IMG/VR virus record: IMGVR_UViG_3300022200_000036
From: an uncultured virus (IMG/VR IMGVR_UViG_3300022200_000036)
Taxonomy: Duplodnaviria; Heunggongvirae; Uroviricota; Caudoviricetes
DNA length: 20,000 bases
Direction: 5' to 3' (one strand)
Of this stretch, positions 1,812-8,716 are shown in pieces. The stretch's first letter is position 1, and every line of letters begins with the position of its first letter. The translations under genes were made by a program, and so were the position numbers. A model generated the notes under the pieces. The model worked only from the letters and a program-made list of their open reading frames with translations, ran no database searches and was not told the DNA's origin.

Positions 1812-2384
1812 TTACACGTACTGCATAGTTGTCATACCAAGACCTCTTGGGTTTTGGGAGACATAGGGCGATTCCGGATCAATGGCACCACCTTGCTGGA
1901 AGCCTGGTACACCCATGGCGCCAATACCTGCTCCTAATGCAAGGCCGCCTGCGCCTGCGGCTGCCGCAGAGGCAGGAACTAAGCCAGCCGCAAAAGCAGG
2001 GTTAGCAGCAGAGGCAAGATTTGCAGGTAAAGCCAATAAACCTGTACGTGCAATATTACCAACGGTTTGAGGTGAATATAAAGTAGCAGCTTGACCGCGA
2101 CTCATGTATTCAGGACTGTTGACAATTCCTTGCTCAATACGTTGCCTTGCAGAACGTTTAGTTTTGCCTAAAGGTCTTTCCAAACCTTTCTCAACAAGAT
2201 TGGGAAGAACGTCGGCATACTTACCTGCTAGTGCGGTCGCACCACGGAGACCGCCATATGCACCAAGGCCACCAAGACCTGCCGCAAGTGCAGCCGAACC
2301 CGGATTTTCACCTTGAGAAAGGGCGTACCCGCCTATAGCTAAGCCAGCCGCAGCAGGTACACCGTATTTAAGAGCGCCACGCAT
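1812..2384 (-). CDS. Ala/Gly-rich hypothetical protein with hydrophobic segments (putative virion or membrane-associated)
   Basis: 190-aa ORF between scaffold and capsid genes. GGAG lies upstream at the end of the previous gene. Hydrophobic glycine-zipper-like stretches near the N- and C-termini. Confidence 0.7.
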   Translation of the reverse strand: MRGALKYGVPAAAGLAIGGYALSQGENPGSAALAAGLGGLGAYGGLRGATALAGKYADVLPNLVEKGLERPLGKTKRSARQRIEQGIVNSPEYMSRGQAATLYSPQTVGNIARTGLLALPANLASAANPAFAAGLVPASAAAAGAGGLALGAGIGAMGVPGFQQGGAIDPESPYVSQNPRGLGMTTMQYV

Positions 2385-2388
2385 GGCA

Positions 2389-3387
2389 TTACTCCATTAC
2401 AAACAGTTTGTTTGCAACGACTTGAGGTTGAGCTTGGTTCAAGATGCGCCAGGCTTGACTGGGATCCACATCCATCTGTTGCTTGAAGCTGCCCCAGAAG
2501 TTTTCAGGCTGCTGAGGAGCAGCGGCAGCAGGAGGAGCAGGGAACTGACCTAATACCCGCTGAACAGGAGTGGTGGGATAACCGAAGGTGCCAAGTTCAG
2601 CCTCATTCTCATACACAGGATACGGACCTTCTGGACCGAAGAACTTCAGCGTGTAATCACTGAGAACATCGGGATTGGTCAGAATCTCGTTATACGCAAG
2701 GTTCTCCTGGTGCTCGTTAACCGAAAATTCGGCATAACGATCGAGAACTTCTTGTGCTTTATGGCCCCAAGCGACGGCGCTATCCAGCATATTTTCAAGC
2801 TGGAGGGCATAGTTGTTGAGTATTGCAGGGGAGTTCCAGCCGTACGCGTCAATTACGTTTCGACTTTCCTCGTTTAGATGCAGGTAATCGGCGATTGCGC
2901 TCTGCACTTCCATCCGCAGCTCGTTGGCTACTCCCGGAGAGGATGCCGCTAAGGAGATTAGGGAAGAGCTGGGCGAGTAAGCCTGGTTGGGTGACCAGGT
3001 CTGCGGAGCCAATTGTTGCGTAGCTGGGTTGCTGTACAGCTGGCCGTAATTGGCTGGAGCGTACTGCGTCGTCTGTGATGGTTGACCCTGGAACGGGGAT
3101 TGAACTGGACTGCTCAACAGGTTCACTACCTTGTTGAACGCCGATTCCCATGGATTGCTCGCCGCCTCCGGTTGGGATTGGGGGGCGTACTGAATAGGGG
3201 CTGATTGGTAGCTGAGGGCCGCCTGAGGCACCGCTTGGGGGTAGCTGGTACCCACCTGATATTGGACTGGACTGCCCACTGGAGCTTGGGGTGCCGGAGC
3301 TGCTGCCGGAACCACGTAATTGCTTGGAGCCACCGCCACTGGTGCTTGGCTCGTCTGTGGGATCGATTGGACGGTAGCGTCCTGCAT
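2389..3387 (-). CDS. Putative capsid scaffolding/assembly protein
   Basis: 332 aa, AAGGAG 7 nt upstream of the ATG. P/Q/A-rich disordered N-half and helical acidic C-half. Position between portal and capsid genes; function inferred from synteny. Confidence 0.6.
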   Translation of the reverse strand: MQDATVQSIPQTSQAPVAVAPSNYVVPAAAPAPQAPVGSPVQYQVGTSYPQAVPQAALSYQSAPIQYAPQSQPEAASNPWESAFNKVVNLLSSPVQSPFQGQPSQTTQYAPANYGQLYSNPATQQLAPQTWSPNQAYSPSSSLISLAASSPGVANELRMEVQSAIADYLHLNEESRNVIDAYGWNSPAILNNYALQLENMLDSAVAWGHKAQEVLDRYAEFSVNEHQENLAYNEILTNPDVLSDYTLKFFGPEGPYPVYENEAELGTFGYPTTPVQRVLGQFPAPPAAAAPQQPENFWGSFKQQMDVDPSQAWRILNQAQPQVVANKLFVME

Positions 3388-5134
3388 AACTCATCTCCTT
3401 TTGTAGAGCTTCTAAAGTTCGATACAGATATGGAGTTAGATCCAATCTTGGGTCCGCAGCCATCGGAAGATCCGGTGCTTGCGGGTGGGGAGTCTGCATC
3501 ATGCCCCCCACTAACCTGGCGAACTGAGAGTAAGCACCCTGTAATTCGTTCACCATCCTGAAAGGGAACCCAGATAACATCTCGGCCCGTTCCTCATCCG
3601 TCTTAGACGGGAAGAGGTATTTCAATGCTTCAATGCTATCAACACCTAATTCTTGCAGATTTCGTACCACGATTGAGTTATTGAGAATATCTTGGGTTGA
3701 ATCTTCGTAAACAGGACCCATCCAACGCCACAAAATAGTGACATCACCATCTGGAATAAGACCAATAACCTTGGGTGGAATTTGTTGTGTCTCCACGCAA
3801 GCCATCATCAATCGTTTGAGCATGTCATTGTATTGCTTCATCGCGTCTTCATAGGCAGCTTCTTCTTCCGGTGAAGCCTCATCTGGTAGATCTACGGGCT
3901 TCTCAAGTCCTGCTGCCATTGCAAGTGTAGTCTTGAACAATTGTTCTTCTTGATAAATAATTAGTTCAAGACAACGACAGATGCCGTGGGTGTAAATGGC
4001 ATTTGCTTTTTTCTTCGATGTCGCGGCAACGCGGCCAAAGAGAGATTTGTATTCAGTTGCGGTAACACCAGCAGAGATGGAAAGCTCATCAACGCCACCA
4101 AGAGCAGTGCGAATTTCTTCACGATACTGACGTGCAAAAGCATTTTGGTCGCCAGTGATGGCGTCTGGAACAATGTAGCCAACACGGTCGTTTGGTTCTA
4201 AATTTGCAATGACACGTGGTACACGGATCTGACCGTCCATGCCACGACTGACTGGATCAGATTTAAACATCGACCTACTCATCGGTGATGGGCTTGTGAA
4301 TCCAGAGTTTGCTGCGATTGATGGACGCTGAATTGTGGTGTCACCACCGGCTTCCATCAGGTCTGTCTTGGGACGAGAAGACAATAATGTTGGGTTACCA
4401 AAGAATGTAATGTTCTTGCGCATGGTGCGCATCAAGTCATCATGCGTGCAGATGTGATTAGCAAGGGCATCAAACTCACCAGTACCTTCATTTGAAAACC
4501 CTTGAGTATTGTTAATGATCTCAACGCATGGAATAAAACCAAGGCTATTTTTTAACTGCTTGGTATTACCCGTAAGCGCATAAGTTGGCATGTCAAAATT
4601 TAATTCAGAATCTGAATGCGTCTCTTCGATTTCTTTTGCTTTAATTGCCAAGCGAATGTAACGTTTGGCTCCAGGACTATAGCTACTTTGATTGCCTGTA
4701 ATATTTGTTGTATTAATTTGATCGCCAAAACCATTACCTTTACGCACCTTGTAGCTATAGATGATTACAACCTCATCCAGCTCGCCATCAACGTTGTAAT
4801 AGGCACGATATTCATGATCACGAAAGTAGTAAAGCCTATAGCTTTGTTTCGTGGGACGGATGTAAAAAAGACCTTTGCCATCACACAAAAAATACTCCCA
4901 GATCGAATCTAGGCGTGTATCCATTTTGTTGTACTTGAGCACACGGTCGATAAAGTCCTTGCGTTGTGCACCGAAGTTGTCTTGAGATGGAAAGAACTCA
5001 ACTCCTTGGCGAATGCCAAAAAGTTTCATCTGAGCAATATGCGACGCAACAATGCCCGTATCGACAACAATATCGCTGTCCTTATCCAGGTAAGCGTTAA
5101 TAATCTCTTGTAAACGGGCTTTAGCGTCGGCCAT
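2849..5134 (-). CDS. Putative portal protein with a long low-complexity C-terminal extension overlapping the next gene
   Basis: 761-aa ORF downstream of TerL and upstream of scaffold/capsid. The first ~580 aa look like a helical portal core (GFIPCVEIIN, EIRTALGGVDE, ELGVDSIEALKYLFP). The last ~180 aa are S/G/P-rich and overlap 2389..3387. Confidence 0.7.
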   Translation of the reverse strand: MADAKARLQEIINAYLDKDSDIVVDTGIVASHIAQMKLFGIRQGVEFFPSQDNFGAQRKDFIDRVLKYNKMDTRLDSIWEYFLCDGKGLFYIRPTKQSYRLYYFRDHEYRAYYNVDGELDEVVIIYSYKVRKGNGFGDQINTTNITGNQSSYSPGAKRYIRLAIKAKEIEETHSDSELNFDMPTYALTGNTKQLKNSLGFIPCVEIINNTQGFSNEGTGEFDALANHICTHDDLMRTMRKNITFFGNPTLLSSRPKTDLMEAGGDTTIQRPSIAANSGFTSPSPMSRSMFKSDPVSRGMDGQIRVPRVIANLEPNDRVGYIVPDAITGDQNAFARQYREEIRTALGGVDELSISAGVTATEYKSLFGRVAATSKKKANAIYTHGICRCLELIIYQEEQLFKTTLAMAAGLEKPVDLPDEASPEEEAAYEDAMKQYNDMLKRLMMACVETQQIPPKVIGLIPDGDVTILWRWMGPVYEDSTQDILNNSIVVRNLQELGVDSIEALKYLFPSKTDEERAEMLSGFPFRMVNELQGAYSQFARLVGGMMQTPHPQAPDLPMAADPRLDLTPYLYRTLEALQKEMSYAGRYRPIDPTDEPSTSGGGSKQLRGSGSSSGTPSSSGQSSPISGGYQLPPSGASGGPQLPISPYSVRPPIPTGGGEQSMGIGVQQGSEPVEQSSSIPVPGSTITDDAVRSSQLRPAVQQPSYATIGSADLVTQPGLLAQLFPNLLSGILSGSSQRAADGSAERNRRLPASKRGKSKRN

Positions 5135-5791: not shown

Positions 5792-8329
5792 CTAGTAATC
5801 AACCTGTAGTTTTCCTTTGCGCATCAAACCGTTAATGACCCAAACCAAGCTATCGACGCAATCGTCGTGACTGCTAATACCAAAGTTCGTCAGCTCTTCG
5901 AACATTGCCGTGAAGTTACGGAATCGATTGAAAATTATCTTACGATCTTCAAAAAGACCCATGCAACCACGGAAACGCGCAAGTTTATCGGCGCGGAATC
6001 CTTTGACTGCGTGCCAATTTAAGTTATAAAGATTTTCATTGTTTAAACAAACACGCTTGAAGTCTGATTCAAGAGAAGCCTGGTATTGCACAGCTTCTGA
6101 ATAAATATCGCATGTGGAGTAGGTCGGATAGTAATTTCCGTTTTCGTCACGTCCCACGATAGACCAATCATTAAGAAGTTCTTTAAGGGCATCCAGCTTT
6201 TCAAGGTTGCCCATGACACGCAACCGGCGGTAATCAATCACGTGAATCTGATCGCCAATTCGACCGGCAAGCGTCATTACCGTGTAATCATTCTTTTCTT
6301 TTGTACCAGCAGATAGGTCGACTCCCACAGCAATCGTATCGAACTCAGTGGCGATCTCGGCTTTTATAATAAGCTCTGGTGCCAAGGACAGTTCATTCTG
6401 TCTGATCACCTGATTCATGTACTGGAACGAGAAGGCAATAGGTGCTTGCCTCTTCTTTTCTTTCAGGTAATCCAGTGACCACATCTCAGGCCAATACGAG
6501 ACTTCGTCCCCTGTTTTAGGGTCGTTCAAGATGGCGGACAACACAATTTGAATCCAGTTGTTTTGTGGGTTGAATGTTGTGGAGTGAATATCGTCATGTC
6601 TGAAGCGCGTACCAAGACAGATGGCACGTCCACCCTCAAACATTGTTGGTGCAATCACCGCATTCCAGTTCTCCTGCATCTGTTTACGGATGTCAGGGTT
6701 AGAAATATCTGCAGCTGACTTGATCGCGTCATCAATTATGCAATTCAAAACATTTAAACCATTAGCGATAAAGTTGTGGTCTAAATGCTCTACTTCTAGG
6801 TCATAGACGAACTCCTCTCTTTCGCTAAGAAACTCAACTCTGGAAACGGGCTCGGGCGACCAGCCTTGTCCGTTACCTGATGATGCGCCACATGACACTG
6901 GCGACATAATGTAATCAAATTTTGCGGGATATTGTTTGTCTTTTTGTGGTCGATATGATGTACGCAAAGATTTGTCCTGGACGTTCCGTTGCTTAATAAC
7001 AACTTCCGCTCCTTTGTATTGCATCCAACGCAAGTAAAATTGTCCCTTTCCAAAATCAACGGTCTCATTTCCTGAAAATCGTTGGAACTGCAGCCGTGTT
7101 GGTAATTGCTGTTCCCAGTCTTTTTCATTCGCCGTGAATGAAGGTGATTCGCACACTCCCGCGAGCAACAAGTTGTTTTGTGACTGACTGGTCGAAATAA
7201 TGCTTGACAAACTGGACAAGATTTTTCCTGAAGCTTTCGTGATGCTGCTCCAGTACACTGATGGCTGCAACAAATCACTAATGGATTTTTTGAAAGACGT
7301 TGGGATAAGCGATTTGAGGTTACGCAAAACTGTTGGCCACACTGCGGACAAGTTGGCCTTACCTGAAAAGCCTGTGTTGTACGAAAACAAGCCTCGCAGA
7401 TACGTTGTGTTTTTTTCTTTGGCCCCCCGCAGGAAAGACAGTTCTTTATCTTGTCTCCTGTTGGATGCTCTGACAAGGACATCCCCTGCACTAAGATCTC
7501 CCGCCCTCTTTTGTTTTCCGTCTTGCGTAACGAAAGGGTGCTCGGGAGTTGCTGAAATACGATTTCCAGAGGCTGTTGTAATGTCAACAATGCCTTTGGT
7601 AAAACGCCTTGTAACTGCCCCCACGTTGCTCCAATCAATTTGATTTGTTTCTGAGTTTCTAACAGCAATTTGGTATTGGTCTGGATCTTCATAAATAGCT
7701 TTAATTGGCACTTGACCAACGTTGGTCGTAACTAGTGTATCACCTGTCAAGCACAAGTGCGAGCGCTTAGAAGTCACGGAGCCCTTGAGGCCAGCAGCGC
7801 AGAGTGTGAATTGTTCTTCACCAGTGGTGTCAATACCTGCAAACCTGTGATCAATAGACCAATACTCATTGCTGGTAACGTTCTTGAGTAGCCGTACCTT
7901 TGGAAAAACTTCTTGGTAGCGCTTGCTTTCAATGATTCGTTTAATCGTTGCAGACTTAGATCGAGCAATATCGACTGTGTAGGAAAGATAAAGAATTTGT
8001 AGCGGCATTTTTGCCATGGTGTGAACACCAATAGCCCATGCCGTAAACAACCCAAGGACGGTACTTTTGGCGGAGCCCCTCGGCGCCAAGAGATCAACAT
8101 TTGGACCGGCAATCTTTATCAAACAATTACTATCATTGCCGGTAACAAACTGTCTATGCCATTCTTTGTGGTGAGCGGCTGGTGGTTTATCTGCTACATA
8201 CTCACAAAAGAACCCAAAATCTTCCCGTGCTTTCTCCAGGGATTCAAGATTTCGTGGAACTCGAATTTGTTGCCTGCGTGCAGCAGCCTGTGCGTTACGT
8301 CGGTAAGCAAGGTGTTGATAAGCAGGCAT
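5792..8329 (-). CDS. terL: Terminase large subunit precursor containing an intein (845 aa; 508 aa after splicing)
   Basis: Walker A-like LLAPRGSAKST; Walker B restored across the splice junction (SHL|CIIDD); coupling motif CLGTRF; RNase H-like nuclease residues VGVDLS and HDDCVDS. Confidence 0.93.
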   Translation of the reverse strand: MPAYQHLAYRRNAQAAARRQQIRVPRNLESLEKAREDFGFFCEYVADKPPAAHHKEWHRQFVTGNDSNCLIKIAGPNVDLLAPRGSAKSTVLGLFTAWAIGVHTMAKMPLQILYLSYTVDIARSKSATIKRIIESKRYQEVFPKVRLLKNVTSNEYWSIDHRFAGIDTTGEEQFTLCAAGLKGSVTSKRSHLCLTGDTLVTTNVGQVPIKAIYEDPDQYQIAVRNSETNQIDWSNVGAVTRRFTKGIVDITTASGNRISATPEHPFVTQDGKQKRAGDLSAGDVLVRASNRRQDKELSFLRGAKEKNTTYLRGLFSYNTGFSGKANLSAVWPTVLRNLKSLIPTSFKKSISDLLQPSVYWSSITKASGKILSSLSSIISTSQSQNNLLLAGVCESPSFTANEKDWEQQLPTRLQFQRFSGNETVDFGKGQFYLRWMQYKGAEVVIKQRNVQDKSLRTSYRPQKDKQYPAKFDYIMSPVSCGASSGNGQGWSPEPVSRVEFLSEREEFVYDLEVEHLDHNFIANGLNVLNCIIDDAIKSAADISNPDIRKQMQENWNAVIAPTMFEGGRAICLGTRFRHDDIHSTTFNPQNNWIQIVLSAILNDPKTGDEVSYWPEMWSLDYLKEKKRQAPIAFSFQYMNQVIRQNELSLAPELIIKAEIATEFDTIAVGVDLSAGTKEKNDYTVMTLAGRIGDQIHVIDYRRLRVMGNLEKLDALKELLNDWSIVGRDENGNYYPTYSTCDIYSEAVQYQASLESDFKRVCLNNENLYNLNWHAVKGFRADKLARFRGCMGLFEDRKIIFNRFRNFTAMFEELTNFGISSHDDCVDSLVWVINGLMRKGKLQVDY
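6743..7753 (-). mobile_element. Intein (337 aa, TerL residues 193-529)
   Basis: Block A CLTGDTLV; block B ISATPEHPF (TxxH); KRAGDLSAGDVL; block F FVYDLEVEHLDHNFIANG; C-terminal LN followed by +1 Cys. Confidence 0.93.
6796..7491 (-). CDS. Zinc-finger HNH endonuclease encoded in the +1 frame inside the intein
   Basis: Cys clusters CLSC..CEAC, CPQC..CCSHQC and CPVC..CCSREC, then an HNH domain ILERDNFTCVGC...LCVHHIDHKKTNNIPQNLITLCRQCHVAHH. GTG at 7491 has GGGAG 6 nt upstream; an alternative ATG is at 7482. Confidence 0.88.
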   Translation of the reverse strand: MQGMSLSEHPTGDKIKNCLSCGGPKKKTQRICEACFRTTQAFQVRPTCPQCGQQFCVTSNRLSQRLSKNPLVICCSHQCTGAASRKLQEKSCPVCQALFRPVSHKTTCCSRECANHLHSRRMKKTGNSNYQHGCSSNDFQEMRPLILERDNFTCVGCNTKERKLLLSNGTSRTNLCVHHIDHKKTNNIPQNLITLCRQCHVAHHQVTDKAGRPSPFPELSFLAKERSSSMT

Positions 8330-8359
8330 CTTATGCAGTAATCAGCGTATTACTGAATA

Positions 8360-8716
8360 CTACCTTATTTTCCCTCGTTGTTGCCTTTCTTCTTCTGTTC
8401 CTTGTACTTGCGAGCTTTCTCCAAAGCGGCCTTCCTCTTCTCGTTGTCCGACATCTCGCTGCCGTCCTTGTTCTTGGCCTCTTTCTTCTTGAAGTGCTCC
8501 AGTAGTTCTGGAGGCATCTTGTTCTTGCTCATTGGCTTTCTTTTCCATTAAGGCATTCATCACTTCTTGCCCTTGAGAAACCTTTTGGGCAATTGGTGTT
8601 GGACGACGCACACCAGCATGCTGCTCGCGATTCTTCTGTAGTTTACGTACTACATCAGCCATGCGGCCAGCAATATTTTCACCAAAAACTGGTGGCTGCG
8701 GCGATGGTTTTTCCAT
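8360..8716 (-). CDS. Hypothetical protein (118 aa; C-terminal half overlaps the 55-aa ORF)
   Basis: ORF track; same strand as the block and fills the gap between 8735 and terL. Confidence 0.6.
   Translation of the reverse strand: MEKPSPQPPVFGENIAGRMADVVRKLQKNREQHAGVRRPTPIAQKVSQGQEVMNALMEKKANEQEQDASRTTGALQEERGQEQGRQRDVGQREEEGRFGESSQVQGTEEERQQRGKIR
8365..8532 (-). CDS. Small Lys/Glu-rich protein (55 aa, MSKNKMPPELLEHFKKKEAK...), not in the ORF track
   Basis: ATG 8532 to TAA 8365. Charged, helical-looking sequence in the +1 frame of 8360..8716, immediately upstream of terL. Confidence 0.6.
   Translation of the reverse strand: MSKNKMPPELLEHFKKKEAKNKDGSEMSDNEKRKAALEKARKYKEQKKKGNNEGK

Follow-up and report, generated by a model that had tools for sequence, protein, structure and literature searches.

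The large terminase subunit gene (terL) of an uncultured tailed phage, carried on the 20,000-nucleotide (nt) stretch of IMG/VR record IMGVR_UViG_3300022200_000036 analyzed here and called the window, contains an intein whose DNA is open in two frames: the terL frame runs through the intein without a stop codon, while the +1 frame of the same strand encodes an HNH endonuclease. This dual-coding intein is real and is kept by selection. We consider it very probable that it is a mobile class-1 intein with a separate homing endonuclease gene in the +1 frame. By the same interpretation, held with high confidence as a whole, the phage is an S-EIVl-like freshwater cyanophage, the intein occupies the Walker-B region of its large terminase subunit (TerL), and the nuclease is a zinc-ribbon HNH protein of about 290 to 298 amino acids (aa) encoded by its own gene within the intein DNA. 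The anatomy of the intein, the selection acting on each frame, the folds, the distribution of the layout and the co-occurrence of empty alleles are established in the paragraphs below. A preliminary description of this DNA had proposed that splicing removes an in-frame passenger and that the HNH is made separately from the +1 frame; this part of its interpretation is supported by the identities frame by frame, by structure prediction and by conservation of the layout, but the start and extent it gave to the HNH gene, and its implied novelty, fail.

The terL precursor is an uninterrupted minus-strand open reading frame (ORF) of 845 codons (8329..5792), and its translation matches PHROG 38 (terminase large subunit) with an E-value of 7e-73 and Pfam model Terminase_6C at 34.1 bits (cutoff 22.6). 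Its splicing domain is recognized by PF14890, Intein_splicing, at 59.3 bits against a cutoff of 35.8, in one stretch, residues 205-525, that bridges the insert. Intein boundaries previously placed at 6743..7753 prove exact by reading of the sequence, with Cys as the first codon (7753-7751, ..KRSHL/CLTGDT, the slash marking a junction here and below) and Asn as the last (6745-6743, ..NVLN/CIIDD). The residues of a class-1 intein (C1 of CLTGDT, TPEHPF, ..HNFIANGLNVLN and the +1 Cys) are all present, and are invariant in 16 of 16 aligned relatives; alignment A3 shows C1, T69-F74, V316-E320, H326, N327 and N337 to be invariant. Joined without the intein, the exteins give a TerL of 508 aa, and intein-less alleles are 337 codons shorter, with exteins joined at KRSHL/V. 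The terL gene is essential. GC content of the intein equals that of its flanks. In AlphaFold2 models of the frame-0 intein, values of pLDDT (predicted local distance difference test) are 73-92 in both splicing domains but below 50 over residues 99-253, 255-275 and 278-295. A genuine nuclease fold in the in-frame linker would speak against dual coding; with pLDDT values of 26-46, this frame-0 middle is instead predicted to be disordered.

In the +1 frame, an open stretch of 307 codons reaches from 7719 to 6796 and ends inside block F, as had been claimed. Its product matches PHROG 1271, "HNH endonuclease," with an E-value of 2e-15, and at E <= 0.01 the Pfam models HNH_3 and HNH match 32 and 27, respectively, of 40 members of the family. 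Residues D217, C221, C224, H245, H246, N258, C263, C266, H267 and H271 are invariant in 40 HNH sequences, and the zinc-ribbon cysteines are invariant or nearly so (alignments A1 and A2). The AlphaFold2 model of the +1 product has a mean pLDDT of 84.6. VIA-align places its residues 201-298 on EcoKMcrA with a Z score of 8.7 (root-mean-square deviation 3.2, 86 residues aligned), followed by ScoMcrA (Z 7.9), IscB (Z 7.9) and Cap5 (Z 7.5). A Foldseek search of the +1 product against the PDB returned nothing at E <= 0.001, its best rows being HNH nucleases at E >= 0.012, and the N-terminal 200 residues gave weak structural rows alone (Z 3.2-3.5, ribosome hibernation factors), which we leave uninterpreted. 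The HNH fold matches and the invariant catalytic residues together bear out the proposal of a complete HNH domain in the +1 frame.

The nested layout recurs in isolated phages and in a large set of metagenomic loci. In Synechococcus phage S-EIVl (KJ410740), an isolate with a named Synechococcus host, the whole gene is 70.8% identical in DNA and the +1 HNH is 63.5% identical to that of the window; the record annotates a single terL coding sequence (CDS). In Brucella phage Tb, terL occupies 2347..4893, is annotated "intein present" and encloses an HNH CDS (3170..3856, phase +1), and Gordonia phage Clown has an HNH match at +1 of terL. Searching with the window HNH found 35 close IMG/VR loci (54-100% identity), and in all 35 the terL frame is open over the HNH, typically for about 850 codons; two (L035, L036) are cut by contig ends. 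Stop codons in the +1 frame of homologs would argue against a functional HNH gene. Such stops exist, as a single nonsense codon in L019 and as a stop plus deletion in L037 and L038, but the HNH frame is intact in 30 of the 31 close loci with a full-length match, L019 being the exception.

For more distant HNH loci, the best 80 of 408 confirmed matches from a profile search were kept, 74 of these loci being new. The HNH is nested in 23 of the 74, with the host frame at -1 and the phase therefore as in the window; host ORFs match Intein_splicing or Hint in 23 of 23 cases (E <= 0.001) and Terminase_6C or 6N in 17. The HNH ORFs of these distant nested loci were intact in 22 of 22 checked, a count that excludes L072, which has an HNH remnant only; L060 is cut by a contig end. 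In another 20 of the 74 the HNH is stand-alone or otherwise arranged, and in 30 more the match lies within ORFs of 414-459 codons. The nine of these 30 that were tested (L067, L070, L073, L076, L085, L089, L092, L097 and L101) all encode RRXRR plus HNH proteins of 418-459 aa without a Hint match, phage proteins that look IscB-like. Among the best 80 of 408 matches, we saw no intein that carries an HNH of this family in frame. Three of three loci in Streptomyces genomes (L193-L195) are nested at +1. A protein database yielded just 19 relatives, whereas a DNA-level search returned hundreds of candidate stretches; nested nucleases escape gene callers and so are under-counted.

We noted separately that L193-L195 are probable prophage terL genes, in three Streptomyces assemblies, which extends the HNH-intein family to bacterial chromosomes.

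Stop avoidance in the terL frame was measured by shuffling the synonymous codons of each HNH ORF 5000 times and counting the terL-frame stops that resulted. The window, together with 19 IMG/VR loci and the phages S-EIVl, Tb and Clown, gave 23 distinct sequences, with L004 and L021 dropped as their ORFs are identical to included rows. The window has no terL-frame stop against a permutation mean of 13.5, with 0 of 5000 permutations stop-free, and 14 stops in the third frame. Across the HNH, none of the 23 sequences has a stop in the terL frame, against 10-21 stops, as expected, in the third. Permutation gave mean counts of 9.9-19.0 stops for 22 of the sequences and never a stop-free frame in 5000 trials each; in GC-rich Clown, the mean was 3.9 and the stop-free fraction 0.010. 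The stop-free terL frame, from which the preliminary description had suggested selection on both frames, is far from what chance would give.

Selection was further resolved in a terL DNA alignment of the window with 18 loci and S-EIVl, 20 sequences in all, from which L004-L006, identical to the window, along with truncated or partial loci, apparent duplicates and L019, were left out. The alignment is gap-free over the whole intein. Diversity by codon position is greatest at terL position 3 in both exteins (0.45-0.62), but from about 7690 to about 6850 the peak moves to terL position 1, the HNH wobble position. In the HNH core, mean pairwise amino acid identity is 0.57-0.66 in the +1 frame, 0.35-0.42 in frame 0 and 0.32-0.42 in +2; because its identity is comparable to that of +2, the frame-0 middle evolves like a non-coding frame.

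The preliminary description had the HNH ORF begin where the N-terminal splicing domain ends, at a GTG (7491) with a GGGAG-N6-GTG signal. The motif is present in the window, yet the position is a GTG start codon in only 4 of 22 relatives and elsewhere reads GTA, GTC, GTT, ATT, ATA or ATC, and the +1 constraint reaches about 56 codons further upstream, to about 7660. In five relatives (L023, L026, L028, L029 and L030), the roughly 49 codons that precede the first zinc-ribbon Cys include none of ATG, GTG and TTG. Candidate starts further upstream are ATG 7692, present in 18 of 22 relatives, and TTG 7668, present in 21 of 22, although the conservation of both is partly a by-product of conserved frame-0 residues. 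Over 7660-7493, mean pairwise amino acid identity is 0.62 in frame 0 and 0.67 in +1; in 12 control windows in the exteins, with a similar frame-0 identity (0.63-0.74), +1 identity is 0.34-0.41. The diversity of the terL wobble position drops from 0.6 to 0.12-0.19 between 7700 and 7640, and the least variable position of the overlap is terL position 3, which is HNH position 2. In the 298-aa AlphaFold2 model of the HNH protein, residues 13-70 form four strands with pLDDT 69-87. Because of this +1 identity relative to controls, the wobble drop and the pLDDT values, we conclude that the HNH ORF reaches into the N-terminal splicing domain. With likely starts inside that domain, about 56 codons are therefore constrained at the protein level in both frames. 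In Tb and in two fractured loci, L055 and L062, the HNH starts after the splicing domain; the N-terminal extension is therefore not universal.

In those two loci terL is fractured at the same Walker-B site into TerL-N::IntN (254 aa), HNH and IntC::TerL-C (386 and 396 aa, respectively). The middle HNH is of the same family and +1 phase, is 272 and 275 aa long and overlaps both neighbors; N and C pieces lie in one frame, with 39 and 56 frame-0 stops between them. L055 and L062 thus fit the description of a fractured gene, and the window, with a host frame continuous over 845 codons, does not. Other relatives show the HNH in disrepair: L037 and L038 carry a deletion of about 144 codons and a stop in the HNH, and in L072, a mini-intein, just a remnant of the HNH is left. 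As judged from their sequences, L019, L037, L038 and L072 represent stages of decay of the sort expected of a homing cycle. We lean towards the view that, in the S-EIVl-like clade, the roughly 56 codons of 7660-7493 are bifunctional, frame 0 specifying part of the intein's N-terminal splicing domain (block B and beta strands) and +1 an N-terminal domain of the HNH protein that is conserved and apparently folded, both under purifying selection, and that contiguous and fractured forms are two states of one element. If true, the bifunctional overlap contradicts the published generalization that places such secondary ORFs outside the splicing domain, and the two states would interconvert by mere gain or loss of stops in the passenger frame.

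Two further arrangements were seen among the relatives. In the terL genes of L022 (936-4694), L029 and L038, the P-loop houses a second intein, some 400 codons long (..SPRG/.../SAKST..), upstream of the +1-HNH intein; it has an ordinary in-frame LAGLIDADG endonuclease (PF14528, PF05204), and in L038 it accompanies a degraded HNH. In L098 (2516-5023), an HNH-related ORF lies out of frame, in another phase, inside an 836-codon N6_N4 DNA methylase ORF, resembling the ShiLan "hidden HNH" discussed at the end.

Mobility was surveyed in the 80 IMG/VR loci closest in the C-extein (89-100% identity). The intein is present in three, which are identical or nearly identical to the window, while 77, as a mobile element would lead one to expect, have the empty junction KRSHL/VIIDD (73 of them complete, 4 cut short at the 5' end). 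A C-extein tree was built from 17 intein-containing and 33 distinct intein-less rows, with duplicates and rows shorter than 310 aa dropped. The window falls inside a clade with 100/98 support whose other 33 members are all intein-less, and the tree requires at least two changes by gain or loss. In public runs X2, X5 and X19, contigs pass from the C-extein directly into sequence resembling the N-extein, with loose ends at 6736, which places empty alleles in the same samples.

As a rough guide, summed contig word depth in runs X2 and X5 was 93-540 over the exteins (6600-6731, 7788-7900) and 11-13 over the intein, and intein-less terL alleles of related phages appear much commoner in these two samples. 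Run X19, which covers parts of 6636-7558, was considered as a sign of transcription, but its RNA label is a guess and it gives no evidence of transcription.

The sequence itself appears sound. Across the HNH, three IMG/VR contigs of different metagenomic origin match the window with 100% identity. The X2 contig shows no differences over 6686-7813, and the X7 contig one substitution over 6671-7829. Insertions or deletions, such as compensating ones that would put the HNH in frame, were not seen in contigs of four public runs over 6600-7900, three of which may be the source sample.

We propose that the terL ribosome would read through the intein in frame 0, and that the roughly 197 frame-0 codons between the splicing domains would form a disordered passenger whose sole constraint is to contain no stop, leaving with the intein by protein splicing to yield the 508-aa TerL. 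The nuclease would most likely come from internal initiation at ATG 7692 or TTG 7668 of the same late mRNA. It would cut intein-less terL (..AAGCGTTCGCACCTG/GTCATCATTGATGAC..) in a co-infection, and repair would copy the whole unit in; the HNH thus probably spreads the insert.

Several observations weigh against this interpretation. Splicing, the mode of translation, cleavage and homing are steps that we infer, the relatives compared are non-independent samples, and the four runs examined for indels include the three that may be the source sample. Under curated Pfam cutoffs, the +1 product of the window falls short, with 15.9 bits for HNH_3 (cutoff 24.8) and 16.0 for HNH (cutoff 21.4). As to the start, ATG 7692 is absent from 4 of 22 relatives, and no Shine-Dalgarno-like motif marks the HNH start. 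The absence of stops from the 67 upstream +1 codons is not significant by within-region permutation (stop-free fraction 0.12-0.82) and only modestly so with extein codon usage (0.004-0.41). A scan for sigma-70-type promoters over 6600-8500 found 2 sites where 2.3 were expected, none upstream of the HNH on the minus strand, and RNAalifold found 0 pairs over 7740-7630 in 12 relatives, that is, no conserved RNA structure at the candidate starts. Beside the intein, comparison with the nearest empty alleles shows uniform mismatches and no co-conversion tract, and the nearest empty allele is about 15-20% diverged in DNA throughout; for these two reasons, recent invasion is not supported.

Other explanations differ mainly in how, or for what, the nuclease is made. 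The HNH gene could start at GTG 7491 or ATG 7482, the upstream +1 constraint then marking a promoter, leader or ribosome-loading sequence and not coding sequence. This seems unlikely to us, despite the GGGAG-N6-GTG of the window, the HNH genes of Tb, L055 and L062 that begin right after the N-terminal splicing domain, and the statistical weakness of the upstream stop-free state. GTG occurs in only 4 of 22 relatives and five have no start codon in the relevant 49 or so codons; the upstream region carries a coding signature in its +1 identity (0.67 against 0.34-0.41) and in the low variability of terL position 3; residues 13-70 are predicted with pLDDT 69-87; and the minus strand has no promoter-like site upstream. 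That the +1 frame is open back to 7719, that no start codon is universally conserved and that no ribosome-binding motif is seen would also suit a +1 frameshift, in which some terL ribosomes shift inside the N-terminal splicing domain and produce a fusion of N-extein, partial intein and HNH. We find this quite improbable: frame 0 offers neither a stop nor an obvious shift-prone site, and there is no conserved RNA structure; a +1 stop directly precedes the GTG start of Tb, and L022 has one at alignment codon 20; and in the fractured relatives the HNH is translated from a free-standing gene.

Slightly less credible again is that the HNH is a terminase-associated packaging factor, as in cos phages, nested in terL for co-expression and not a homing enzyme. 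The family here is always inside terL, and the idea has been raised for brucellaphages (PMC4422536). Against it, 77 of the 80 closest terL alleles lack both the intein and the nested HNH, a count of nested copies only, as an HNH elsewhere in those phages was not searched for. In L019, L037, L038 and L072 the HNH decays while terL stays open; members of the same family sit between split-intein halves, and a related out-of-frame HNH lies in a DNA methylase (L098). Least of all do we credit an artifact or relic, in which compensating indel errors would have moved an HNH out of frame or the +1 ORF would no longer be functional; nothing was found in its favor, and it is close to untenable given the same phase in 35 + 23 + 3 loci and three isolated phages, a gap-free alignment over the intein in 20 sequences, contigs of four runs without indels, and purifying selection on the +1 frame.

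A mobile intein with a nested, separately translated nuclease would have implications beyond this phage. A selfish element inside an essential gene needs little, as the host frame must just avoid stops, and avoidance is cheap because a terL-frame stop requires an HNH codon ending in T followed by a codon starting with AA, AG or GA. Uncoupling splicing from homing would let either function decay or be replaced alone. Within one terL family, the relatives also supply natural intermediate states linking contiguous inteins with mini and split ones.

Table 1. Features of the terL locus of the window, and coordinates of the two fractured relatives.
Feature	Coordinates	Strand	Description
terL precursor ORF (terminase large subunit with intein)	5792..8329	minus	845 codons plus stop; PHROG 38 and Pfam Terminase_6C
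N-extein	7754..8329	minus	192 codons; ends ..KRSHL, just before Walker-B-like hhhhDD motif; intein-less alleles KRSHL/VIIDD
Class-1 intein	6743..7753	minus	1011 nt, 337 codons; Cys1, TPEHPF block B, VYDLEV..HNFIANG..VLN, +1 Cys next
N-terminal splicing domain (intein residues 1-98)	7460..7753	minus	AlphaFold2 pLDDT 73-91, beta strands; kept in A3
Frame-0 passenger linker (intein residues 99-295)	6869..7459	minus	Stop-free; unconserved as protein; predicted disorder
C-terminal splicing domain (intein residues 296-337, blocks F and G)	6743..6868	minus	pLDDT 83-92; kept in A3
C-extein	5792..6742	minus	316 codons plus stop; begins at +1 Cys of CIIDD
HNH endonuclease ORF, +1 frame	6796..7692	minus	298 codons plus TAG from ATG 7692; alternative start TTG 7668; PHROG 1271
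Doubly constrained overlap	7493..7660	minus	56 codons; N-terminal splicing domain (frame 0) and HNH N-terminal extension (+1)
GTG put forward as HNH start in the preliminary description	7489..7491	minus	Unconserved
Zinc-ribbon region of HNH protein (residues ~84-200)	7095..7443	minus	Repeated CxxC...CSxxC; Pfam DZR_2 below cutoff
HNH catalytic domain (residues 201-298)	6799..7092	minus	Invariant catalytic/zinc residues; VIA-align to McrA nucleases
Fractured terL loci	L055:1833-4463 and L062:1824-4493		Split intein plus HNH overlapping both halves

Elsewhere in the window, a 332-codon ORF (2389-3387, minus strand) overlaps the last ~540 nt of a portal-like gene (2849-5134, minus strand) in another frame. 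The portal-like gene has 761 codons and matches phrog_20475 with an E-value of 1e-283 over residues 3-736; no PHROG matches the 332-codon ORF, which is probably spurious or has a downstream start.

Several published systems resemble the window intein in part. Fractured genes, in which a free-standing endonuclease lies between the halves of a split intein, were described by Dassa et al. (2009, PMC2677866) with GIY-YIG and Vsr-like enzymes, not HNH; L055 and L062 share that arrangement, whereas the window has a contiguous and, by prediction, cis-splicing intein. The ShiLan "hidden HNH" of phage DNA methylases is an out-of-frame HNH in a stop-free host ORF (Arsenault et al., Genes 2025, PMC11855218). 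Unlike the window, it is described as an insertion without splicing domains, so that the in-frame insert stays in the mature protein; in the ShiLan-like L098, the N6_N4_Mtase host ORF lies at +1 relative to the HNH, a phase different from that of the window. A cyanobacterial dnaX intein whose homing endonuclease is out of frame (Phillips, DeSimone and Gogarten, bioRxiv 10.64898/2026.09.14.751524) differs in having a cellular host gene, and the words HNH and terminase have no occurrences in the accessible text of that preprint.

Nearer still are actinophage inteins with out-of-frame or antisense homing endonucleases, many of them in terL, for which origin by invasion of a free-standing nuclease is proposed (Gosselin, Arsenault and Gogarten, bioRxiv 10.1101/2025.01.02.630785). 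As in the window, the splicing domain is in the host frame, the nuclease is in another, and the in-frame middle is unrecognizable; the same-strand case in the accessible text is endonuclease VII-like and in "frame 3," whereas the window has a zinc-ribbon HNH at +1. Clown is named there only as having the largest class-1 intein, although the supplements may classify it; here, it proves to have a terL with a +1 HNH of the window family. The brucellaphages Tb and Pr (Perisivirus) have a terL intein with a nested HNH gene (NC_019446 gp07, gp08; Virol J 2015, PMC4422536). Tb is like the window in its terL host, its homologous zinc-ribbon HNH (29% identity over 88% of the query), its +1 phase ((3170-2347) mod 3 = 1) and a terL frame that is stop-free against 9.9 stops expected. 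It differs in that its HNH begins directly past the N-terminal splicing domain and is closely preceded by a +1 stop, whereas the window ORF extends about 56-67 codons into that domain; host phylum and phage lineage are also different, and the accessible text of PMC4422536 contains no analysis of selection or distribution. The novelty implied by the preliminary description therefore does not stand, the brucellaphage arrangement having been in print since 2015 and the class having been described in 2025-26 (10.1101/2025.01.02.630785, 10.64898/2026.09.14.751524). In the accessible text of this literature, we found stated neither the doubly constrained splicing-domain overlap nor the family, site and phase shared with split-intein relatives. 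The window intein is a further member of the published kind of intein with an out-of-frame nuclease: its host frame is open (0 stops against 13.5), and only the +1 product is a recognizable domain.

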